Positions 2,431-50,571 of a DNA stretch of 61,383 nt are shown in pieces. How positions within the stretch are numbered: the first letter of the stretch is position 1; each line of letters starts with the position of its first letter. A program made the translations under genes and the position numbers. The notes below the pieces were generated by a model. The model ran no database searches, was not told the origin of the DNA, and worked only from the letters and a program-made list of their open reading frames with translations. The DNA comes from a virus (taxonomy: Duplodnaviria > Caudoviricetes), in IMG/VR virus record IMGVR_UViG_3300036833_000473, positions 1 through 61,383 of that record; one strand, given 5' to 3'.

Positions 2431-2442
2431 AAATGTTTGAAT

Positions 2443-2472
2443 ATTATGGCATTTTTATCACTGATAATTCAA
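2443..2472 (-). promoter_or_regulatory. Sigma70-like promoter with palindromic operator
   Basis: Minus strand TTGAAT-18-CATAAT; palindrome TTATCA-c-TGATAA at 2455-2467. Confidence 0.55.
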
Positions 2473-2522
2473 GGTTAGCAGAGAGTGCGGGAGATGGGTG
2501 GCGCGAGGGATATCATAGGGCC

Positions 2523-4049
2523 ATGGCCACAGCCCCGGCTCAGCTCGAGTACTTCGTCAAGAACTTCGACTTCCTGCCGCCGCACGTGCAGGCGGCGGTG
2601 CGCGAGCGCCTGGAGGGCGCAATCATCGGCGACCGGCCGGAAGAGGCGCGTAACAGCTTCCTGCCCTTCGTGCGCCGCGTCTGGCCGGGCTTTATCCACG
2701 GCCGGCACCACGACGTCATGGCGGACGCCTTCGAGCGCATTGAGAGAGGGGAGCTCAAGCGCTGCATCATCAACATGCCGCCGCGCTCGACCAAGAGCAA
2801 GCTGACCAGCGTCATGTTCCCCGCCTGGTACCTGGGGAAACATCCAGAGAAGAAAATATTCGAGGGCAGCCACACGGCATCGCTCGCCATGGACTTCGGC
2901 CGGGATCTGCGCAACCTGGTGCTGACGCCGGAATACCAGAAGGTCTTCCCGGGGCTGCGCCTGGCGCAGGACTCTCGCGCCGCGCACCGCTGGAGCACGC
3001 ACGTGGGCGGCGAGTACTTTGCCGTCGGCAAGACCGGCGGCGCCGCCGGCCGCGGCGGGGACCTGGTGATTCTCGACGACCCGCACAGCGAGCAGGATGT
3101 CCTGAAGAACGCCAAAGCCGAGTTCGAAAAGACCTGGAAGTGGTACCTGGCTGGTCCACGGCAGCGCCTGCAGCCCGGCGCGGCAATTCTGGTGGTCATG
3201 ACCCGCTGGGGCGAGATGGACCTCACCGGCCAGCTGATCAAGCAATACCTGGAAGACGAAAAAGAAGTCGAGCGCTGGGAAGTGATCGAGCTGCCGGCCA
3301 TCCTGCCATCCGGCGACGCGCTGTTCCCGGAATTCTGGAAGATCGAGGAATTGCGCGCCACGCGAGCCATCCTGCCGGTGGCACGCTGGCAGGCCAACTA
3401 CCAGCAGGCGCCGACCAGCGAGGAAGGCGCCATCATCAAGCGCGACTGGTGGCAGAACTGGGGCGAGCCCCTGCCACCCTTGTGCGAGTACCTGGTGATG
3501 AGCTGGGACACGGCCTTCTCTACTGGCGACAGCGCCTGCCGCAGCGCCTGCATCGTATGGGGCGTATTCCGGCAGAAAACCCACGAGGACCCGCCGCGCG
3601 TCAAGACCGGCATCATTCTGCTCGATGCCTGGGCGGCGCGCGTCAACTTCCCCGAGCTCAAAAAGAAAGTCAAAGAGCTCCACGCCCAGTGGAAGCCGGA
3701 CTCGCTCGTGATCGAGAAGAAGGCCTCCGGCGGACCCTTGATCCAGGAGCTCTTCCACGCCGGCCTCTATGCCCAGGAGATGAACCCCTCTCGCTCCCAG
3801 GACAAGGTGGCGCGCACCAACGCGGTGGCCGACCTGTTTGCGAGCGGCATGATCTGGGCCCCGCTCGGCCAGCGGTGGGTGGAGCAGGTACGGGAAGAGA
3901 TGGCGGCGTTCCCGCATGGCGAGTACGACGACCTGCATGATGCCGGGGTGTGGGGCCTGTTGCGGCTGCGGATGGGAAATTTAATTCACCTGGGAAGCGA
4001 TGAGGAGGATGAGGAATGGCAGCCGCGGCCGGCGCGGAAATTCTATTGA
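2523..4049 (+). CDS. terL: Terminase large subunit
   Basis: MPPRSTKS Walker A, LVILDDP Walker B, VMTRW motif, SWDTA / IEKKASG / YDDLHD nuclease motifs; start set at ATG 2523. Confidence 0.95.
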   Translation: MATAPAQLEYFVKNFDFLPPHVQAAVRERLEGAIIGDRPEEARNSFLPFVRRVWPGFIHGRHHDVMADAFERIERGELKRCIINMPPRSTKSKLTSVMFPAWYLGKHPEKKIFEGSHTASLAMDFGRDLRNLVLTPEYQKVFPGLRLAQDSRAAHRWSTHVGGEYFAVGKTGGAAGRGGDLVILDDPHSEQDVLKNAKAEFEKTWKWYLAGPRQRLQPGAAILVVMTRWGEMDLTGQLIKQYLEDEKEVERWEVIELPAILPSGDALFPEFWKIEELRATRAILPVARWQANYQQAPTSEEGAIIKRDWWQNWGEPLPPLCEYLVMSWDTAFSTGDSACRSACIVWGVFRQKTHEDPPRVKTGIILLDAWAARVNFPELKKKVKELHAQWKPDSLVIEKKASGGPLIQELFHAGLYAQEMNPSRSQDKVARTNAVADLFASGMIWAPLGQRWVEQVREEMAAFPHGEYDDLHDAGVWGLLRLRMGNLIHLGSDEEDEEWQPRPARKFY

Positions 4050-4066
4050 AACCTGACCTACGACTT

Positions 4067-4747
4067 CTCTCAGCTACCAGGCCGCCGAGCGGGCATTCCA
4101 GTGTTAAGGCCGGGTCTCAGTTACCGGGCCGCCGGGCAGGCACTGTGACCCAACAGAACAGGGGCGCCAATGGCGGTCTCAGCTTACCACGCCGCTGAGC
4201 AGGCATTACGGCACGAGGCGATTATCATCGGTTTCGTCCCAGCTACCACGCCGCTAGGCAGGCACTGCAGAACAAATGCCGAAACGGTCTCGAGCAACCA
4301 GGCCGCCGGGCTGGCACTGCGATTTTACACCATCTCCCAGCTACCACGCCGCTGAGCAGGCACTGCGACGATCACGCGCAATGAGCGCATAATCACGCAT
4401 CCACTGAGTCCCAGCTACCAAACCGCTGAGCGGGCATTGCGACTCGGACAAGAGAATCGATGCTGTCTCGTCTCAGTTACTAAGCCACCGAGCAGGCAAC
4501 TTCCAAGCCTCCGTTATCCGGGTCTCAGTTTCCAAGCCACCAAGCAGGCATTGCAACCCCGCAAGCGCGGTGCGGCGCGGATCCGGTACGTCATCTCGGT
4601 TACCAAGCCACCGAGCAGGCATTGCAACACGGCGTAACTATCTCAGCCACCAAGCCACTGAGCAGGCGCTGCAACCTCCCGTGAAAGATTGTAAGACGTC
4701 CCTGAAAGGCTGTCTCAGCTATCACGCCGCTGAGCAGGCACTGCAAC
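4067..4747 (-). CRISPR. CRISPR array, 12 degenerate 36-37-bp repeats and 11 spacers (10-38 nt)
   Basis: Repeats start at 4067, 4114, 4176, 4236, 4287, 4334, 4408, 4470, 4522, 4593, 4640, 4712; minus-strand consensus GTTGCAGTGCCTGCTCAGCGGCTTGGTAGCTGAGAC with 3' hairpin; 10 bp from the effector stop codon. Confidence 0.92.
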
Positions 4748-4757
4748 AGTCCCTATT

Positions 4758-6503
4758 CTATACTGTTGATCCCATGCCCTCCTCTCCCTCGCTTGGCGAG
4801 CGGTCCCCGGAACCCGGCAAAATCTCCGGACTATCTGACTGATTCTTCGTCGGTGCCGCCTTGCCGCTCGCCAGCAGATTGATGGCCGCATTATGGTCCT
4901 GATCCCAAAGCTCACCGCACTGACCGCAGCGGTGCAGCACGCTGGCCGCCTGGTCCCAGACCTCGGCGTGCCCGCAGGCGTGGCAGGTGGAAGTGCTGTA
5001 GGCCGCCGGCACGATGCGGACTTCAACTCCCTCGCGCTTACAGGCGTTCACTACCGCGCCGCGGAAGACCGAGGGACTGAGCATCTGGCGGTAGCTGCCA
5101 ATGGTTTTATTCTTTTCATCTTCCTTGGGCTCGGCCACCTGGCGCAGGTCGAACTTCTCGAGGATGACGGTGGCGTATCTAGCCGCCAATTGAGCGGCAA
5201 AGATGCGGTACTGCTCGCGCACGCGCAGGGTCATCTGGTCCTGCTGGTTGCGCCACCAGTTGGTGAGGTGCAAGTATTGCCTGCGCCAGCTGGTGGCGCT
5301 CGCAAATATCTGTGCGTCCTCGTCCAGGCGATGGTCGCCCCACCAGCGGATCAGGCTGGCCAGGCGGTCGCCGCTGCGCCATTGCGCCAGTGTCAGAGTG
5401 CGGCGTTGCCACTCGCTATCGAGCGACTGCCCGCCCAGCCACTTCACCAGCTCGGGCTGAAACTGGTCGCGCGCGCAGTCGGTAATGGAGCGCAGGTCGT
5501 TGACCTTTTTGAATTGCGCGATGTCGCTAGCAGGAACCAGCACCTCGCTATGGCTGCCCGCGTCATCCTGCCAGTAGGCCACACGGCCGCCGGCAGGCAG
5601 GAGGCGCCAGCCGATGTCGATGGCTACGGCAGCGCCGGGGTTCTTGACGGGAACCGGCGGCAGAGCCACGCTCACGTTCAACGCCCATTGCACCTTGCCG
5701 GCCAGCAGGCGCCGCGTGGCGCTGACGCTCTTGATGCGCGCCAGAGGCGGGATGTCGCGATGGTAGACGATGGGCAGGCTTACCCAGAGGGGCGTGCGGC
5801 TCTTCTCGCCGGAGCCGATACGCACGCGCGCGTAGCGCCACTTTTGTCCCGGGGTGGCACTGTCGATCTGGAAGAAGGTGTGCGGCCCCTCCACGCAGGC
5901 TTCCACGCTCGCGCCGTCAATGATCTGCGCCGTAAGCGTGCCCTCGCCGCGGAAAGAGCGGTACTTGAGCTCGCCCAGCTTGCGGCCGGTGTCGGCCGAC
6001 TGGATGACGGCGTTATAAGTCCCCCAGAACAGGCCCAGGCCCTTGGGGCCGGCCGCCCGCCGCGCGCGCTTAACGCGCCGGTTGCGCAGAGCGTTGAGCG
6101 CGTCCAACTGCTCCTGGCGCGCGGCGTGGCGCGCCTTCTGGGTGGCCTTCTGGTGCTCGAGCAGCATGCCGAGAGCGGAGCGTACCCGCGCCAGCTCGTC
6201 GTCGAGGTCGGGAGTCGCGACCTTGGTGCGGGCCTTCTGGCTCCGCGTCTTCTTCTCTTTCCAGAGCGCCTCCTTGCGTTCGCGCAGCTTCTCGATCTCC
6301 ACCTGCGCCTCGTCGCTCATGACGCGCCGGTAACCCGCGGTATGGTAGCGCTCGACGGTGACCAGCACGTTCCACAGGCGGCGCGCCAGGCGCATCTGCA
6401 CCAGCGCCTGGTCTTCGTTTAAGACGGGCGCGATGCGCGCGGGAACCGTGCCGTACTGGTAAACCATGGAACGCGTTTTCTGAGAGTCCTTCTGGTGTTT
6501 CAT
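4758..6503 (-). CDS. cas12m: Type V CRISPR effector, Cas12m (V-M/V-U1)-like, 581 aa
   Basis: LFWGTYNAV, FRGEGTLTAQI, RVRIGS, WVSLPIVYHR, RuvC-I AIDIGWR, RuvC-II ILEK, Zn finger CHAC..CGQC, RuvC-III DQDHNAAINL; adjacent array; RBS GAAAGG. Confidence 0.85.
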   Translation of the reverse strand: MKHQKDSQKTRSMVYQYGTVPARIAPVLNEDQALVQMRLARRLWNVLVTVERYHTAGYRRVMSDEAQVEIEKLRERKEALWKEKKTRSQKARTKVATPDLDDELARVRSALGMLLEHQKATQKARHAARQEQLDALNALRNRRVKRARRAAGPKGLGLFWGTYNAVIQSADTGRKLGELKYRSFRGEGTLTAQIIDGASVEACVEGPHTFFQIDSATPGQKWRYARVRIGSGEKSRTPLWVSLPIVYHRDIPPLARIKSVSATRRLLAGKVQWALNVSVALPPVPVKNPGAAVAIDIGWRLLPAGGRVAYWQDDAGSHSEVLVPASDIAQFKKVNDLRSITDCARDQFQPELVKWLGGQSLDSEWQRRTLTLAQWRSGDRLASLIRWWGDHRLDEDAQIFASATSWRRQYLHLTNWWRNQQDQMTLRVREQYRIFAAQLAARYATVILEKFDLRQVAEPKEDEKNKTIGSYRQMLSPSVFRGAVVNACKREGVEVRIVPAAYSTSTCHACGHAEVWDQAASVLHRCGQCGELWDQDHNAAINLLASGKAAPTKNQSDSPEILPGSGDRSPSEGEEGMGSTV

Positions 6504-6703
6504 ATAGCTAACCTTTCTTTCTTTTTCCCTTCGAGCATATGATGCTCGAGTCCGCCGAACTCGCCGGCCCAGTCGAGCAGGTTGGCGAGCCTCTGGCCGA
6601 CGAACTTGCGCGCGAGCGGCGCGGCCTTGACGATGACTCCATCGCGCGTAACCACCTCGATGGTGAACACGCGGCAGCTGATCCAATGCGTCAGTTCTTT
6701 CAC
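6500..6703 (-). CDS. Small phage hypothetical protein
   Basis: 4-bp overlaps with both neighbours. Confidence 0.7.
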   Translation of the reverse strand: MKELTHWISCRVFTIEVVTRDGVIVKAAPLARKFVGQRLANLLDWAGEFGGLEHHMLEGKKKERLAI

Positions 6704-6918
6704 AGCCAGGTCTCCACGATCACCGGATCGTCGCCGTAGTTGCGCGGGATACAGGTCAGCCCCTGCCCGGCCAGCATGGCGCGCAGAACAGCCAGGTCAT
6801 CGCTGAAGGCGACCAGACCGTCCGGGCGGTCGCCCTCCCAGGCGCGCACCACATACCAGTCCGGGAAATCGCGCGGATGGTCGTAGATGGTGTACAGGCG
6901 GACCTGCTCGACTTCCAA
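6700..6918 (-). CDS. Small phage hypothetical protein
   Basis: IYDHPRDFPDWYVVR...DDPVIVETW motif; coupled in operon. Confidence 0.7.
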   Translation of the reverse strand: MEVEQVRLYTIYDHPRDFPDWYVVRAWEGDRPDGLVAFSDDLAVLRAMLAGQGLTCIPRNYGDDPVIVETWL

Positions 6919-9152: not shown

Positions 9153-10075
9153 ACCTTTACCTCGTAGTCGCGCGGCGGCACCTCCCCGCGCGCCTTCGTC
9201 CCGCGCGTGGTCATCGGGGTCCACACCAATTGATGGTACTTCCCGAATAAGCCCGCGCCCTGCCGGTAGTCGCGGAAATGCCCGCGGCAGATATGAAGCG
9301 CCTTCGCCAGGCCCACCTCGCCACTGCGACCTTCGCGGCGCAGAATCTGCTTCAACGGCTCGATCACCAGCGTCTTGTATTTCACCGGCCAGTGGCCGGT
9401 GCGCTCGTGGTACTTCTTGGCAAGCGGCAGAGGCATGCGCTCGTCCTGCTGCACCACGTTGTGGCAGTGCAAAAACGAGATGGCGAGCAAGGACGGGTGC
9501 AGCCACGTCATGAGCGCTTTCATCAGCCCTTCCTCTTGCGGAGTCGCCCAGCTGTGCATGGAAGGCGCGCCGAGCAGTGCGCCGGCCTCATCGATCGCCG
9601 TGGCGATGGTGCCGTGCGGCCCCTGAATGGCCGCGCCATGTTGGCCGTAGTCCACGAACAGCTCGGCGACCATCACCCAGTGCGCGCCCGCTGGAATGTC
9701 CTCGCCGACCGCGTCTTTCGCAAGACCGGCCAGGAACAGCACGCCTATGCGGCCCCTGGAGATGCCCAGGTGGCTGATGTCGCTGTCGCCGCACTGCTTG
9801 CTGTGGATGCGCGTGGCGAGCTTGTGCTCCATCCAGAACGCTGCGAACGGCGGCGCGATGTTGGGGAAGTCCTTATTGAAGCTCCAGACCTCCTGGTCAC
9901 TAGTCTCATAGTAAAAGCGGGCCACGTTGTCGATCAAGATCACCGGCAGCGGCTCACGCAAGAGCTCGATGGTGCGCCGTGCGTGAGCGCCCCAGTCGCT
10001 CTCGCGGTAGGCAGCCACGAAGCGGGGCATCTCAAGCTTGGGAGCGACGCGTAAGTCGTCGATCAGGCGGGGCAT
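9149..10075 (-). CDS. Hypothetical protein with C-terminal HxxRGH..W.P motif
   Basis: LHICRGHFRDY...LVWTP, resembling the tail of the adjacent AcrVA2-like gene. Confidence 0.75.
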   Translation of the reverse strand: MPRLIDDLRVAPKLEMPRFVAAYRESDWGAHARRTIELLREPLPVILIDNVARFYYETSDQEVWSFNKDFPNIAPPFAAFWMEHKLATRIHSKQCGDSDISHLGISRGRIGVLFLAGLAKDAVGEDIPAGAHWVMVAELFVDYGQHGAAIQGPHGTIATAIDEAGALLGAPSMHSWATPQEEGLMKALMTWLHPSLLAISFLHCHNVVQQDERMPLPLAKKYHERTGHWPVKYKTLVIEPLKQILRREGRSGEVGLAKALHICRGHFRDYRQGAGLFGKYHQLVWTPMTTRGTKARGEVPPRDYEVKV

Positions 10076-13806: not shown

Positions 13807-13848
13807 GGTTTTACCTCCTAATGCGTGCCGGGGTTGTGAACCGGCCCT

Positions 13849-13873
13849 CCCGCATTACCCCCGCTAATGCGGG
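13849..13873. terminator. Intergenic hairpin
   Basis: CCCGCATTA / TAATGCGGG inverted repeat, no clear U-tract. Confidence 0.35.
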
Positions 13874-13886
13874 GTCACTCTGCGAT

Positions 13887-19592: not shown

Positions 19593-21367
19593 TTCGGATC
19601 TCCTTCTCTTGTTTTGGTGTATTTGGCAAATGGAAAATTACTTGCCGGCAGCAGCCAGCGGCTTTGTTCCTGGATATTAGGGCCACGAACTCGCTTACGC
19701 GTGGCGCCGATTAAGCGCAGCGCCTGCGTGATGGCGTTGAGGGAGAGTTTCTGGTTGGCGTTGCGTTCCAGCCAGCTCATGAGATGCAGCGGGCTGACGG
19801 CTACCAGTCCTTCGATGAGGGTCGGCAGGTTCCGGTTTTGGAACGGTTGCCCGTCAATTTCGGGGATAAAGGGGTTTTTATTCAGGTATTGGTCCAGCTG
19901 GATGCGCATGTTGCCGGCGGCATGGTTCTCCGGGCCGCCGTCGATCTTAATCAGGGCGTCCAGCATGTTCTGCGCGAGGATTGACCATTCGGCGCGTTTG
20001 AAGGGGCGCAGAAAGTGCTCGAGTTCACTGGTGGCGAGGGCTAGGCGCAGCGCGTCCTGGTTAATCAGCGTGTGCGTGTCTTTCAGCCAGATCGACCTGC
20101 CATCGGCCAGGTCCAGTGTGTAGCTTGGGTTGTCGCCGGTGATTTTGCAGATCCTCAGCAGTGGCGGGATCTCGAGGTCGCGGCCTGCCTGGCCGGCGAG
20201 CCGTGCCTTCGCTATCGCTGGATCGGCCGGTGGCGGCGCGCTCGCTGCGGCCGCCTCGGGAGGTGCTGCGGCATCTGGCGCCGCCTTCTGTGCGGGCGCT
20301 GCCGTGCTGTTACCGGCTTCTTCTTCGGTCTCCTCGATTTCTTTTTCGCTGGCGGCGATGCCCCCGGTGGTGATGGAGCCGCGGGTGGCGCCCTTGGACA
20401 GGGTGAGCAGGTAATAATTCAATTTGGTGCGTGCCGGTCGCCCGTCCTTGCGGCGGTGCTGGACGATTAGGTCGATAATTTGTTGCGGCGCTAATTTCAC
20501 GTCGAAACCGAAGTCGGTGAGCGCCATGTCGTAGCCGGATTGCGTGCTGTCCTTCAGGTCGGTGCGCTGGCGGAGCCAGGTCCGCCGGAAGCGCTCGTTG
20601 CCCTCGAGCCACAATTCAATCTGCTCGGGTGGCAGCGCGGCGTCCAGGTTCACCCTCAGGTCGCCATTATTCTGGAATACTGCTGGTTTAGGTGCGGCGT
20701 CCTCCTGCGGAATCCCCATCTGGTCGAGGTACCACGCAAGCTCGCTCAGGTTATAGCGCGCGTCGCGCTGCTCGAGTACGGTGACGGGCCTAGGGTCTCC
20801 GGGGTCCTTGTAGTTGCGCGTGCCGGGGATGCGCATCACGCGCGCCAAGTCGCTCAGCCGGTCGAGCGCCCAGCCGCGCGCGGCCGCGCGCAATCCCAGC
20901 AGGGTCTGCCAGCGGTGGACGATGCGCGCTGCGGCGGTGCGCTCCTCGGCGCTGCCGAAGCGCGCGATCTCGCGCAAGAGCCACCAGGCGTGACACCCGT
21001 GACCGGTATCCACAATGAGCGACGGTGGAAATTCCGCGGGTATCACGCTGAGCGCTTCGGCGAGCGTGGCGGGCAGCGCCTTCTTCGGATGGATCGGTCC
21101 TGCCAGGTCGAAGTCCTGCCAGACGCCAGCGATCGCGGTGATCTCTTCCGACGGGCATCGGAAGTGTTTCCCGCGGTCGCTGGCGCTCAGGCCGACGCCC
21201 AGGTAGCAGTCCAGGTGCAGCGAGCCGGCGATCACCTGAGCGGCCTGGTTGAGGTTTTGGCGCCAGTGAGACAATTTGAGCGTGTCGCCCTGGTGCGTCC
21301 AAATGAGTACGTAATCGTCTGGGGGCTTGTCTGCCCACAGTAGGTACAAGAATTCGAGGGGCGTCAT
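19589..21367 (-). CDS. RepB-like AEP-family DNA primase
   Basis: WQDFD, VDTGHGCHAWW, DLARVMRIPGTRNYK, SGYD helical domain. Confidence 0.85.
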   Translation of the reverse strand: MTPLEFLYLLWADKPPDDYVLIWTHQGDTLKLSHWRQNLNQAAQVIAGSLHLDCYLGVGLSASDRGKHFRCPSEEITAIAGVWQDFDLAGPIHPKKALPATLAEALSVIPAEFPPSLIVDTGHGCHAWWLLREIARFGSAEERTAAARIVHRWQTLLGLRAAARGWALDRLSDLARVMRIPGTRNYKDPGDPRPVTVLEQRDARYNLSELAWYLDQMGIPQEDAAPKPAVFQNNGDLRVNLDAALPPEQIELWLEGNERFRRTWLRQRTDLKDSTQSGYDMALTDFGFDVKLAPQQIIDLIVQHRRKDGRPARTKLNYYLLTLSKGATRGSITTGGIAASEKEIEETEEEAGNSTAAPAQKAAPDAAAPPEAAAASAPPPADPAIAKARLAGQAGRDLEIPPLLRICKITGDNPSYTLDLADGRSIWLKDTHTLINQDALRLALATSELEHFLRPFKRAEWSILAQNMLDALIKIDGGPENHAAGNMRIQLDQYLNKNPFIPEIDGQPFQNRNLPTLIEGLVAVSPLHLMSWLERNANQKLSLNAITQALRLIGATRKRVRGPNIQEQSRWLLPASNFPFAKYTKTREGDPK

Positions 21368-21933
21368 GTGTCGTTATTCGCTTTCACATAATCAGCGCCC
21401 ACCCGGCGGGTGGGCGGGCGTTTCGGCGGCCGGTGTTCTTTGGTGATCCGCCACCCGTCGATGGGTGCCCCGAACCACATTTCCGCGGTGGCGCGGGCGT
21501 GGCGGGCGTAAGGGGTGGCGAACTTTTTCCGATACTCCTTGGGCTGCCAGATCAGCCACCGTGGACCAGTGCGCCGCAAAATAACCTCGATCGCAGTGGT
21601 ACTTGTGGTCTCCGTGCCTGTGCCGCTCAGCATGGCGGTGACTTCGTCGCACCCATCTAGCGGATCCGGCGGGGGCGGTGTCCAGGCGGGATCGATCAGC
21701 CCCACCGGGAAGGTCGCCATATCGCGGAAGCGTTCCCCGTCCCAGTAGGTAATCGTGGCGTCATCCATCTCCGCGTCGGCCGGGATGTCGGCCAGCTCGA
21801 CCAGTGGGGCGCCGAGCTCCTGGGCAATTTCTTCCCGGCTCTTCCCGGCGAGAGCCATGGGATAGCGGATGGACTCGCGGGCATGTTGTTGAAAACGGCG
21901 TAGCCGTGCCAGGCTGTAGAGGCGTTCGGCCAT
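21364..21933 (-). CDS. Hypothetical protein
   Basis: Operon position; ATGA overlap. Confidence 0.65.
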   Translation of the reverse strand: MAERLYSLARLRRFQQHARESIRYPMALAGKSREEIAQELGAPLVELADIPADAEMDDATITYWDGERFRDMATFPVGLIDPAWTPPPPDPLDGCDEVTAMLSGTGTETTSTTAIEVILRRTGPRWLIWQPKEYRKKFATPYARHARATAEMWFGAPIDGWRITKEHRPPKRPPTRRVGADYVKANNDT

Positions 21934-21954
21934 TGCGTGTACTCTTTCGGTTTC

Positions 21955-21990
21955 GCCTCAGCTATCAGGCCGCTGAGTAGGCATTACTGG
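21955..21990 (-). repeat. Solitary CRISPR-repeat copy A
   Basis: gcctcagctatcaggccgctgagtaggcattactgg; CTCAGC/GCTGAG stem as in the array. Confidence 0.85.
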
Positions 21991-22035
21991 TCTGAGCAGC
22001 TCGAGTGCTTCCCGGGCATTATGCACCACGCCCGT

Positions 22036-22071
22036 GCCTCAGCTATCAGGCCGCTGAGTAGGCATTATCGG
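22036..22071 (-). repeat. Solitary CRISPR-repeat copy B (81 bp from A)
   Basis: gcctcagctatcaggccgctgagtaggcattatcgg; overlaps the VRR-NUC stop codon. Confidence 0.85.
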
Positions 22072-22359
22072 TCGGAGCAGTTCGAGTGCTTCGTGTGCAT
22101 TATGCACTACGCCTGCAATAGCGCCGGCACACCGCCACTCTTTCAGGCGCGCCGTTTGCAGGGGCGTAGGGATGTTTCCGGGCCTCTTGACTTCAAGCTC
22201 AAAATGGCGGCCGGCGACCACTCCGTACAGGTCGGGATCGCCGGCTGTGCCGAGCGCGGTTCCCCAGCGCTTGCGCACCACCAGGCCCGGAATTTGCCTT
22301 AGGGCCTTTACGATCGCGCGCACCAGCGAGCTTTCCCGCGCTGGGGCAGGGCGCGCCAT
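22039..22359 (-). CDS. VRR-NUC domain nuclease
   Basis: ESSL, GDPDL, LEVKRPG..TPLQ. Confidence 0.88.
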   Translation of the reverse strand: MARPAPARESSLVRAIVKALRQIPGLVVRKRWGTALGTAGDPDLYGVVAGRHFELEVKRPGNIPTPLQTARLKEWRCAGAIAGVVHNAHEALELLRPIMPTQRPDS

Positions 22360-23227: not shown

Positions 23228-23263
23228 GTCCCGAGTATCAAGCCCTCGGGCAGGCATTTCAAC
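23228..23263 (-). repeat. Solitary CRISPR-repeat copy C
   Basis: gt-cccgag-tatcaagcc-ctcggg-caggca-tttcaac: same 36-nt layout, covaried stem. Confidence 0.85.
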
Positions 23264-25449: not shown

Positions 25450-25487
25450 GTCTCGGCTTGCTATGGCCGCCGAGCGGGCATTGAGGT
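25450..25487 (-). repeat. Solitary CRISPR-repeat copy E
   Basis: gt-ctcggc-ttgctatggcc-gccgag-cgggca-ttg. Confidence 0.78.
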
Positions 25488-25491
25488 TTTT

Positions 25492-25520
25492 ATTCTTGAC
25501 CTTGCAACCCAAATTGTCAA
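25492..25520 (-). promoter_or_regulatory. Candidate promoter of the replication operon
   Basis: TTGACA-17-AAGAAT on the minus strand. Confidence 0.5.
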
Positions 25521-48952: not shown

Positions 48953-50161
48953 TCAGCTGGCGAGTGGCAGGTGGTAGTCCAGGATCCGCGTGGACTGGCT
49001 CATGCGCTCACGATAACCGGGAACGAGGTTCAGATAGTGGTTCGCCGTAATCTTGACGTCGCTATGGCCGAGCATCTTGGAGACGACGAAGAGGTTCTCG
49101 CCGCCGCTTGCCACCAGCATATTGATCGCGAAAGTATCGCGGAAGCGGTGGCAGGCGCCAGGCAGGCCGGCAAGAGCGAGAGCCTTCACCACGAGCGCGG
49201 TCGTTTCGCGGATGGCTGTCAGATATCGGCCCGCTCCCAGTTCTTCGGAAAAATTGCCGCCCGCGTTGAGGACGGCCAGCGCCTTGCGGTAGTCGCCCTC
49301 GGGTTGGAAGAAGAAGGCACCAGATCCCGGCAGCTGCCTCAGGGCTTCGACCGCAGCGAGGTTCAACTCGATGGGCAGGCCGATACGCTTGCGGGTTTTG
49401 ATCACCACGAAATCCAGGATGCGGTCCGCGCTGATCGAGGCGCGCTGCGCGAAGGTCGCATCCGAGATGCGCATGCCGCTATACACCATCAGCAGGATGA
49501 GGGCGCGGGTGCGATCCCGGTCGGCTTCCGGCATAAGCCCGATTGCCTGGATGACTTTCGCCAGGTCGGCGTGGCTGAAGGCCTCCCGTGCGTGCCCGGA
49601 GGGCTTGGAGAACGTCAGGGCCTTTTTGGCGGCTGGCGACTTCACGATCCAGTCCATTTCCTTGGCGTAGTTGAAGAACACGCGCAGATGCGTCAGGCGG
49701 CCGATCTTGGTGCGCTGCTCCCATTCGCGCCCGTACTCGCTGAAGTATTGCTCGAAGAGGTACGGCTCGACGGCGCGCAGTTCGACCACCCCGTGGGCTT
49801 CGGCGAAGCGGCGAAAGTGGCCGACGGCGGTGGTATAGAGTTTGACCGTATTGGGTGCCTTTCCGCTTTTGGCCTTAAGGAATTTGGCTTCGGCTTCGGC
49901 GATGCTCATCACGCCAGTGGTGATAGCTTGCGCCACGCCGCCTCCATCGGGGGAGTGCGGGTTCAGCATCTCGCGGATCTTGAGTTCTGCCATGCCGAGC
50001 GAGCGAGTGCTCAGGCTCTCGCGAATATACTTGCCGGCAATTCGGCCTTGTACCCAGAGTGGGCAATCGCAGGCAAGGTCCTTCGCCGTGCAGGCCGGAG
50101 CGTGGCGCCGGTAAGGGGTCAGGTGGTCGCGCTTTTTGCGTGGGGTTTGGGTGTTGGACAT
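48953..50161 (-). CDS. int: Tyrosine integrase
   Basis: SGMRISD, K, HRFRDT, LGH, HY catalytic motifs. Confidence 0.93.
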   Translation of the reverse strand: MSNTQTPRKKRDHLTPYRRHAPACTAKDLACDCPLWVQGRIAGKYIRESLSTRSLGMAELKIREMLNPHSPDGGGVAQAITTGVMSIAEAEAKFLKAKSGKAPNTVKLYTTAVGHFRRFAEAHGVVELRAVEPYLFEQYFSEYGREWEQRTKIGRLTHLRVFFNYAKEMDWIVKSPAAKKALTFSKPSGHAREAFSHADLAKVIQAIGLMPEADRDRTRALILLMVYSGMRISDATFAQRASISADRILDFVVIKTRKRIGLPIELNLAAVEALRQLPGSGAFFFQPEGDYRKALAVLNAGGNFSEELGAGRYLTAIRETTALVVKALALAGLPGACHRFRDTFAINMLVASGGENLFVVSKMLGHSDVKITANHYLNLVPGYRERMSQSTRILDYHLPLAS

Positions 50162-50373
50162 GAGGTCAGTATAGCCCATTCCCACACATGAAATTCGTAC
50201 GGTATTTTTGAGGTTATTGAAAACAGGAAGGTTAGCGTGTACGAAAATACTAGAAGGTCTTCTTCAAATTGCATTTACAATCTACGATATATCTTTAGTA
50301 TCAATATCTTAGCAGTCACCATAATCACCATTTATCCCATCCATTGTACAACCTTGTACGCCCGGAGGTCCCC
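50162..50373. other. Candidate attP region
   Basis: AT-rich non-coding stretch beside int with four GTAC-core boxes. Confidence 0.45.
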
Positions 50374-50535
50374 ATGGCCCAAATAACCTACGACCCCGAG
50401 TGCGAAAAGTTGGCGGCTTACTTCCTCTCGGGTGAGCCGGCGCACGGCCGCAAGGAACGAATCCAGGACTTGGCCGGTGTGATTCAGCGGGCCATCGAAG
50501 CCTGGATCGAGGAGAAGAGCTTATGGCACCGCTAA
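50374..50535 (+). CDS. Small hypothetical protein
   Basis: RBS GGAGG; YDPEC..LA.YFL...LA..IQ.AIE.W. Confidence 0.65.
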   Translation: MAQITYDPECEKLAAYFLSGEPAHGRKERIQDLAGVIQRAIEAWIEEKSLWHR

Positions 50536-50571
50536 GTCCCAGCTACTGGGCCGCTAAGCAGGCATCACCAA
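50536..50571 (-). repeat. Solitary CRISPR-repeat copy F
   Basis: gt-cccagc-tactgggcc-gctaag-caggca; stem closes with G.U only on the minus strand. Confidence 0.78.

Follow-up and report, generated by a model that had tools for sequence, protein, structure and literature searches.

A drifted guide array with irregular spacers in a phage-borne type V-M CRISPR system, and solitary copies of its repeat elsewhere in the phage

The window analyzed here comprises one virus record (IMG/VR record IMGVR_UViG_3300036833_000473; 61,383 bases) with a completeness estimate of 95%, and its subject is a run of irregularly spaced repeats on the minus strand, at positions 4067–4747, beside a gene for the effector protein Cas12m. 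This run is the guide array of a phage-borne CRISPR system of type V-M, and by every feature that can be tested from sequence the system appears to belong to that type. With moderate confidence, we explain the run as a fixed array that is still able to bind Cas12m and from which dispensable sequence has been lost. An initial annotation of the window had pointed out the irregular and very short spacers and had proposed that full-length guides are mixed with short regulatory ones. The observation was right, while the meaning proposed for it is mostly replaced by a simpler one.

The array was delimited by reading the sequence and by a covariance model built from its copies, which found 12 repeat copies on the minus strand, each with an E value of 4.9e-7 or lower. 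The effector gene, the array and its units, given from the cas12m side outward with each repeat followed by its spacer, are listed here (nt, nucleotides).

4758–6503, minus strand: cas12m, 581 amino acids, protein P0002, with the Pfam domain Cas12f1-like_TNB (PF07282, E 5.8e-13)
4067–4747, minus strand: the array in full, with 11 spacers between 12 drifted repeats of 36 nt, from sequence reading and the covariance model
4712–4747, minus strand: repeat R1, 52.2 bits, six stem pairs all Watson-Crick; then spacer 4676–4711 (36 nt)
4640–4675, minus strand: repeat R2, one G-U pair, final base T; then spacer 4629–4639 (11 nt), with the head of the next repeat near consensus
4593–4628, minus strand: repeat R3, two stem pairs altered on both sides with pairing kept; then spacer 4558–4592 (35 nt)
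4522–4557, minus strand: repeat R4, two G-U pairs; then spacer 4506–4521 (16 nt), with the head of the next repeat different at seven of seven positions
4470–4505, minus strand: repeat R5, from the covariance model and stem table; then spacer 4444–4469 (26 nt)
4408–4443, minus strand: repeat R6, from the covariance model and stem table; then spacer 4370–4407 (38 nt)
4334–4369, minus strand: repeat R7, final base G instead of C; then spacer 4324–4333 (10 nt), the shortest unit
4288–4323, minus strand: repeat R8, 38.5 bits, not fully paired in the fixed register; then spacer 4272–4287 (16 nt)
4236–4271, minus strand: repeat R9, from the covariance model and stem table; then spacer 4213–4235 (23 nt)
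4176–4212, minus strand: repeat R10, 37 nt with one additional loop base; then spacer 4150–4175 (26 nt)
4114–4149, minus strand: repeat R11, stem weakened; then spacer 4103–4113 (11 nt), with the head of the next repeat different at four of seven positions
4067–4102, minus strand: repeat R12, the last copy, from the covariance model, final base G

The spacer lengths, which are 36, 11, 35, 16, 26, 38, 10, 16, 23, 26 and 11 nt from the cas12m side outward, reproduce the list in the initial annotation with the sole difference of the eighth spacer (16 rather than 15 nt), which is a matter of boundary choice, and the span of 4103–4711 given there covers precisely what lies between the last repeat and the first. 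The annotation had counted three spacers of acquisition-like length, which agrees with the related arrays described below, where 218 of 272 spacers are 33–41 nt long. It had also calculated that the shortest spacers together with the first 7 nt of the next repeat amount to 17–18 nt, and the same values emerge from the distances between repeat cores, which are 43, 18, 42, 23, 33, 45, 17, 23, 30, 33 and 18 nt, all 11 of them at least 17 nt. The reading of the run as a class 2, type V array on the minus strand likewise stands.

The repeat array is not a product of chance, as a 28-nt repeat pattern with up to three mismatches allowed had four matches in the sequence and none in 100 shuffles. The copies are 65–88% identical to one reference copy and differ from R1 by 3–17 core mismatches, and Tandem Repeats Finder, run over positions 3000–6000, reported nothing; hence, a repeat finder of the ordinary kind can miss an array this irregular. 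The spacers are mutually unrelated (best local score of 8 versus a shuffle mean of 8.5), which suggests that they arose as separate acquisitions and not as duplicated units. The features of an array that still acquires spacers were not seen, because the repeats are non-identical, the spacers range from 10 to 38 nt, and no Cas1, Cas2 or Cas4 was found in the 95%-complete phage record. Cas1 was likewise not found in five related phage records, so that the family may acquire spacers in trans.

The protein encoded next to the array matched the PDB entry 23vw_A, named “CRISPR-associated DNA-binding protein Cas12m,” with an E value of 4.4e-83 over residues 24–548 of 581, and it matched Cas12m2 with an E value of 2e-21. 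RuvC motifs and a zinc-ribbon (TNB) domain are present in the order typical of TnpB and Cas12 proteins. The RuvC triad reads D-E-D: across 21 aligned homologues D536 never varies and D296 and E449 hardly do, and 23vw has the same residue at each of the three aligned positions. Judged from its sequence, the effector is a full-length Cas12m of type V-M. A longer, TTG-started frame that extends to 6686 is probably not used. The closest relatives of P0002 are 45–65% identical and are metagenomic only; 51 loci with relatives at 23–53% identity were found in IMG/VR, while the best match in reference genomes was 33% identical. A check of the plus strand for a trans-activating RNA (tracrRNA), made on the sequence, gave no antisense repeat-like match at E ≤ 0.5.

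To see what spacer length means for such an effector, the array was compared with published data on Cas12m proteins, which are quoted here and below from the available portions of the cited reports. Eight Cas12m orthologues, four of them with the D-E-D triad, bound DNA flanked by a protospacer adjacent motif (PAM) and did not cut it; the tested proteins needed no tracrRNA and processed their own precursor CRISPR RNA (crRNA), and V-U1/V-M loci were described as typically lacking acquisition genes (PMC11013384). In the complex of Cas12m2, 17 guide nucleotides pair with the target in a 17-base-pair (bp) duplex, repeat positions −36 to −30 are disordered, and the remainder of the repeat forms a pseudoknot and a stem gripped by the protein, which reads the terminal C of the repeat base-specifically (PMC10442227). 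The mature RNA of PmCas12m consists of ∼33 nt of repeat and ∼17 nt of guide, with RNA cuts after repeat base 2–3 and at guide position 17–18; the optimal spacer among those of 12–26 nt tested was 17 nt long, and activity was abolished by one mismatch within the first 12 nt (preprint 10.64898/2026.03.26.714355). For repression by Cas12m, one 5′ scaffold was reported to suffice (preprint 10.64898/2026.10.26.761838).

Since the tested Cas12m proteins bind without cutting and use 17 nt of guide, the contrast between cutting and truncated-guide binding, which is real for some class 2 enzymes, does not apply to this family, and the division into full-length cutting guides and short regulatory guides drawn in the initial annotation was not borne out. 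As only 17 nt of the guide are used and what follows is trimmed off, spacers of 36 nt and 17 nt are expected to behave alike. The spacers of 10–11 nt are shorter than the 12-nt mismatch-sensitive stretch of PmCas12m, and by analogy with that protein they are more likely crippled than regulatory. From the overall interpretation of the annotation, what remains is the type V assignment, the minus strand, the free repeat head, the lack of a self-target and the action by binding, the last of which is known for the tested family members and would extend to P0002 by analogy; the classes based on length did not survive the identification of the effector as Cas12m.

The repeats themselves were then compared for signs of decay or upkeep. 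All 12 carry a scaffold of the Cas12m type, formed by a 3-bp pseudoknot stem and a 6-bp hairpin, with 2 nt between the end of the hairpin and the spacer. Although the stems carry 26 substitutions, 10 of the 12 repeats keep all six hairpin pairs, and a random placement of the same numbers of substitutions reached 10 paired repeats in none of 20,000 trials (maximum of eight). The stems, read as minus-strand RNA, contain 10 G-U pairs versus three A-C mismatches. Over the 18 copies of the repeat in the window, 96.9% of 162 cells are paired and five of nine pairs have compensating changes; the observed covariation was matched by none of 500 shuffles, and sliding the partner lowered the pairing to 20%–50%. 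The divergence is the lowest at positions 8–13 (6%) and the highest in the 7-nt head (31%), in agreement with the annotation, which had supposed the head to be free to vary. The high variability of the head fits the Cas12m2 structure, because positions −36 to −30 are disordered there (PMC10442227). The drifted repeats of relatives also fold, as found for 55 of 59 repeats with two to five mismatches and for 18 of 24 with at least six. From these data we infer that the scaffold has been under selection. A relationship between scaffold score and spacer length was considered and dropped, as the bit scores before short and long spacers overlap by eye and the model was built from the same copies.

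To place the short spacers in a wider context, an nhmmer repeat profile was run on 171 fetched loci and the window, which gave 33 non-identical arrays with at least four repeats; the statistics refer to 31 of them, with the window and the near-duplicate array L073 left out. A repeat was counted as drifted when it had at least two core mismatches to the commonest repeat of its own array, and a spacer as short when it was below 30 nt. The same repeat family is found downstream of cas12m relatives in dozens of loci, where clean repeats are identical and spacers are 33–41 nt long. The data showed that short spacers occur in 47 of 106 units beside a drifted repeat versus one of the 166 whose flanks are clean (Fisher p 8e-22), and without L005, the largest contributor, in 23 of 72 versus one of 164. 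They are also about twofold more frequent in the cas-distal half of the arrays (27 of 115) than in the cas-proximal half (12 of 105). Because short spacers track drifted, mostly cas-distal repeats, secondary shortening is indicated rather than a designed class of guides. The closest phage relative, L006, with an effector 53% identical to P0002, has 20 identical repeats with 35–39-nt spacers next to the gene, followed by a drifted zone with spacers of 26, 17, 18, 13, 12, 14 and 28 nt. The window array looks like such a drifted tail without the fresh zone, and drifted tails with short spacers recur in L005, L006, L032 and L122. The most extreme case of this drift pattern was seen in L005, a complete 113-kb phage, where ∼37–40 units lie at 4412–6800; its first nine spacers are 26–41 nt long (all but one 33–41 nt), while the remaining units are drifted with spacers of 3–29 nt.

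The explanation favored here, which for its molecular steps leans on what is known of the family, is that cas12m and the array would be transcribed as one unit and that Cas12m would cut the transcript into units of scaffold and ∼17 nt of guide. The resulting complexes would occupy matching DNA flanked by a PAM and silence it without cutting, with rival mobile elements or host genes as the likely targets. The array would be fixed because the phage has no acquisition genes. Over time its repeats would have drifted while selection preserved the scaffold, and small deletions would have removed the sequence that is not used, which is the far half of the ∼36-nt spacers and the unstructured 7-nt head of the repeat. 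The irregular spacer lengths are proposed to result from these deletions, in line with which no distance between repeat cores in the window falls below 17 nt. Nine of the 11 units keep at least 16 unique nucleotides after the scaffold and can plausibly guide. In unit 4, the next repeat head is unrecognizable, with all seven positions different, and hence 23 unique nucleotides follow the R4 scaffold. Units 2 and 7 (11 and 10 nt, with near-consensus next heads) are probably dead or very weak, and unit 11 (11 nt, with four of seven positions drifted in the next head) is a borderline guide.

Several observations weigh against this explanation, and the evidence on rotting versus maintenance is mixed. 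The stems of R8 and R11 are impaired, the first by an extra base on the 3′ side and a mismatch, the second by two C-A mismatches (both read by eye), and four or five repeats lack the terminal C. The divergence of the core outside positions 8–13 is 13%–25%, which is not far under the 31% of the head. The permutation and shuffle tests are inflated, because under shared descent an inherited compensated pair is counted several times, and the alignment behind the covariation figures for the 18 copies was fitted to the structure. The repeat boundaries set by nhmmer are perhaps a few nucleotides off in drifted copies. Units with only 10–14 nt between cores were read by eye in L005, and four of 48 short spacers in relatives are below 10 nt, so that a strict floor of 17 nt between repeat cores, which holds in the window, fails in L005 and was rejected as a general rule. 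No deletion event was seen directly. The sole informative pair of arrays, the near-identical L072 and L073, differs in one unit of 19 versus 38 nt; as the two spacers are unrelated, a simple deletion was ruled out for this difference.

A further point of the same kind is that no target was found for any guide in the searches made, which leaves current function unproven. In the window, the longest exact guide matches were 9–12 nt, and two seed-anchored near-matches were found versus a mean of 2.1 for shuffled guides, which agrees with the statement in the initial annotation that there is no self-target. The array had no blastn match in isolate phages, and a single match to a Rhizobium plasmid (E 0.7) in a search of plasmids was dismissed. 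Exact 22-mers of the three longest of the 11 spacers had no matches in IMG/VR, and the best match in 1.95 Mb of related loci was a 15-mer that was not seed-anchored. The fresh spacers of L006 also had no match in isolate phages. Among 258 unique spacers of relatives, one matches DNA outside an array. This is the newest, cas-proximal spacer of L021 (11768–11805), which aligns to sibling phages with 35 of 38 positions identical and guide position 2 mismatched (sites 17305–17338 in L008/L054 and 14678–14711 in L010). The match suggests phage-against-phage targeting, perhaps with escape, in another clade of the family; a PAM was not derived from it, as one case with a mismatch at position 2 cannot define one.

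The strongest competitor, to which we give a small but appreciable probability, is that the array is a dead relic: the module would have come from a donor that acquires spacers, the array would have decayed neutrally so that no unit guides, and the hairpins would be the leftover of past selection. The drift of all 12 repeats to 65%–88% identity, the damaged stems of R8 and R11, the five spacers under the 17 nt used by Cas12m and the failure to find a target are all consistent with this. That such modules do decay is illustrated by L048, which keeps only the last 54 codons of cas12m beside four repeats. On the other hand, cas12m in the window is intact with its conserved residues all present, and 10 stems remain paired through 26 substitutions, which was unmatched in the 20,000 random placements. 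The repeats also vary mainly at positions that are left unheld in the solved complex, and the solitary copies of the repeat found elsewhere in the phage have intact, covarying stems.

These solitary copies are a more intriguing lead than the array. Beyond the array, the covariance model detected five solid copies (E ≤ 4.4e-4) and one weak candidate, every one of them on the minus strand. The weak candidate and four of the solid copies are located in the replication module, a set of minus-strand genes for an SNF2 helicase, an endonuclease, a primase-polymerase and a UvrD helicase, while the fifth solid copy is near the integrase gene. These copies, together with a promoter-like site next to one of them, are as follows.

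25492–25520, minus strand: promoter-like site, TTGACA, 17 nt and AAGAAT, with 10 of 12 consensus positions
25450–25487, minus strand: solitary copy at the head of the replication operon, 25.3 bits, E 4.4e-4, perfect stem with an 11-nt loop
25319–25354, minus strand: weak solitary candidate, 12.3 bits, E 0.39, perfect 6-bp stem, conserved head drifted
23228–23263, minus strand: solitary copy between two genes of the replication module, 36.3 bits, E 1.5e-6
22036–22071, minus strand: solitary copy located at the endonuclease gene's 3′ end, 42.9 bits
21955–21990, minus strand: solitary copy with its end 21 nt upstream of the ATG of the open reading frame (ORF) 21364–21933, 44.3 bits
50536–50571, minus strand: solitary copy ∼350 nt upstream of the integrase gene and on the same strand, 42.6 bits

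All six solitary stems are fully paired, five by Watson-Crick pairs only and the 50536 copy with two G-U pairs. In the copy at 23228–23263, four of six stem pairs are swapped on both sides with pairing kept, and a terminator-like hairpin (23227–23212) lies directly 3′ of it, which as a consensus match is near chance. The copy at 25450–25487 starts 5 nt past the promoter-like site; three such sites were found in the region versus 1.1 expected, so that this call, a consensus match only, is also near chance. The copies at 22036 and then 21955 arose with a tandem duplication of ∼80 nt (21955–22118), which copies the 3′ end of the endonuclease gene and its repeat. A small plus-strand ORF (∼50376–50535), divergent from the integrase gene, ends under the copy at 50536–50571, which is antisense to this end. 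By eye, the spacer after R9 (4213–4235) and the sequence after the 21955 copy (21934–21954) have their first 8 nt in common, for which a rough estimate, not computed, is ∼0.002 coincidences expected among 153 guide pairs.

Repeat copies outside the arrays were also seen in relatives, namely in three of five whole phage records. In L060, whose effector is 51% identical, a repeat copy and a partial second copy lie in frame within a surface loop of cas12m, as an insert of 17 amino acids that is absent from 19 of 21 aligned homologues and leaves the ORF open, and two further copies lie directly upstream of the cas12m start codon (the L060 copies are at 1172–1207, 443–478 and 518–553). Copies upstream of cas12m were not accepted as a general theme, as L060 and L141, with L131 as a weak case, are the only ones of 150 loci that have them. 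In L171 (record G001; 4951–4999), the 13 nt at the 3′ end of a solitary copy occur a second time after it, a partial duplication of the same kind as in the L060 in-gene copy. L048, a 36-kb phage record that is 99% complete, has its 54 codons and four-repeat array at 5701–6109 and also a head-to-head pair of solitary copies at 9956–10033.

The solitary copies could be stand-alone guide genes, decoys, or cis-acting sites at which phage messages are cut or masked. One way to join them with the array, which we regard as speculative and somewhat less probable than decay, is that the phage has domesticated Cas12m as a device for gene control, in which fixed minimal guides silence DNA targets and scaffold copies let Cas12m cut or mask the phage's own transcripts. 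The minimal guides would then consist of the scaffold core and ∼17 nt, packed down to 46–47 nt per unit, and the scaffold copies would act where they are found, which is where the replication operon begins, 21 nt ahead of a start codon, next to the integrase region and within cas12m of a relative. If true, one CRISPR effector would serve in one virus as a DNA repressor and also as a cis-acting RNA operator.

Slightly more doubtful again is that there is scaffold without any guiding, with the array and the solitary copies serving as decoys for a host Cas12m, or as cis-acting operators or cut sites on phage transcripts. The five solid copies and the weak one, all on one strand with fully paired stems, agree with this, as do their positions 5 nt past a promoter-like site, before a terminator-like hairpin and 21 nt before a start codon, and the L060 copies that abut the cas12m start and sit in frame within the gene. 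It is also consistent with the report that viral solitary repeat units, known as RNA anti-CRISPRs, often come right after a promoter (PMC10651486), and with the cut that PmCas12m makes in RNA at guide position 17–18 (10.64898/2026.03.26.714355). However, the RNA anti-CRISPRs described in the available part of that report are unlinked to cas genes, while this phage carries the matching effector (PMC10651486). Moreover, copies upstream of cas12m are rare (two solid and one weak in 150 loci), and the promoter and terminator were called from consensus matches at a level close to chance.

That the short units are dedicated regulatory guides, as the initial annotation had proposed, is improbable. 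They would be crRNA-like units of 10–16 nt that pair partially with promoters of the phage, its host or rivals and bind weakly or reversibly. Such crRNA-like regulatory RNAs with limited pairing are reported for other CRISPR types (10.1101/2024.12.27.630466), the spacer and free repeat head of the three shortest units do add up to 17–18 nt, and the drifted repeats still fold. Against this, Cas12m does not cut, so that shortening is needless for avoiding cleavage, and 10–11 nt would be too few for a protein such as PmCas12m, whose activity was lost to one mismatch in the first 12 nt. The seed-anchored matches in the phage are at chance (two vs. 2.1) and the longest matches are 9–12 nt. In addition, the short units have the poorer scaffolds, as a short spacer comes after each of the two impaired stems (R8 and R11), and short spacers track repeat drift across the 31 arrays.

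That the run is not CRISPR at all but a packaging, replication or protein-binding site array, as its irregular, iteron-like spacing and the large terminase gene ending 17 nt away could suggest, is very hard to believe, as the same repeat family follows cas12m relatives with regular 35–39-nt spacing in dozens of unrelated loci, and the 10 G-U pairs versus three A-C mismatches on one strand only, together with compensating changes, point to RNA.

Compared with MmCas12m2, GoCas12m and PmCas12m, the system of the window has full-length effector homology, no acquisition genes, a 36-nt repeat with a pseudoknot and a hairpin adjoining the guide and a free 7-nt head, and the D-E-D triad found in four tested non-cutting variants. 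It differs in its temperate phage carrier, in the drift of every repeat, in spacers of 10–38 instead of 33–41 nt and in the scattered solitary copies; binding, PAM and lack of cutting would apply by analogy to its clade of 45%–65% identical metagenomic relatives. In ordinary CRISPR arrays, the older, leader-distal repeats gather mutations, the drift is usually limited to the last one or two repeats and the spacer length stays constant. Relatives such as L006 resemble these degenerate trailer ends in having a clean cas-proximal and a drifted distal zone, but in the window, L005, L006 and L122 the drift extends over long runs in which the fold is kept and the spacers are shrunken. A drifted repeat with a short guide that serves binding without cutting, and guide genes that lie outside an array, are also known from regulatory crRNA-like RNAs, the short delocalized crRNA of Cas12k and TnpB-like repressors with short guides. 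In those systems a partial match to a promoter or attachment site can be demonstrated, while none was found here in the window search. The solitary copies are similar to RNA anti-CRISPRs in being single viral copies, one of them after a promoter-like site, and are different in that, as far as the available text goes, RNA anti-CRISPRs are unlinked to cas genes and mimic host repeats, while the matching Cas12m is encoded here (PMC10651486).

A similar phage system is that of MvCas12m from myxophage MV-1, which also consists of a phage-borne Cas12m with the D-E-D triad and an adjacent array, without cas1, cas2 and cas4, and for which no protospacer matches were found either (bioRxiv 10.64898/2026.09.14.751636). 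This effector has 610 amino acids versus 581 here, and its array is described with one consensus repeat and eight spacers, with neither drift nor short spacers mentioned in the available portion of the preprint. The report (September 2026) claims the first phage Cas12m, so that the phage carrier itself is not new; as noted above, IMG/VR holds 51 loci with relatives of P0002. The arrays of Cas12r in Thermus Lalka phages are likewise short, with degenerate repeats, a type V effector and no acquisition genes; one spacer of 6 nt occurs among those of 31–33 nt, a single repeat suffices, and the guide of ∼18 nt is measured by a ruler (bioRxiv 10.64898/2026.04.20.719267). On the other hand, Cas12r belongs to another effector family, cuts DNA and has the guide on the opposite side of the repeat, and most of its spacers are of full length, many with matches (10.64898/2026.04.20.719267). 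In a limited literature search, we found neither eroded-spacer runs with drifted, still-folding repeats for type V-M arrays nor any phage with the matching effector in which solitary scaffold copies are described.

If the favored explanation of a fixed, trimmed array is true, evolution has trimmed Cas12m guide units to what the protein needs, which would be independent support for the 17-nt rule obtained at the bench. It would also mean that selection keeps the drifted tails with short spacers in type V-M arrays and that they are not simply rotting, and it would provide natural repeats that are non-identical yet fold, which are useful for stable multiplex arrays. If the array is dead, it is an ordinary decaying module. 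The presence of solitary copies together with the matching effector raises the question of CRISPR effectors that process or repress the phage's own transcripts.

With regard to the gene setting, the array sits between convergent genes, with the stop codon of the large terminase gene (2433–4049, plus strand; phrog_38, E 2e-97) 17 nt from one end and the stop codon of cas12m 10 nt from the other. A tyrosine integrase is encoded at 48953–50185 on the minus strand (PF00589, E 1e-13), which indicates that the phage is temperate. When the SNF2 helicase of the phage was used as a query for close relatives, the best identity was only 25%, and from two DNA runs the source contig and a ∼95% alike cas12m fragment were recovered, with nothing covering the array. 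A type-P5 twister self-cleaving ribozyme (57.2 bits vs. a gathering score of 37.6) was found at 13828–13884 on the minus strand, which also carries the long run of genes that ends with cas12m.

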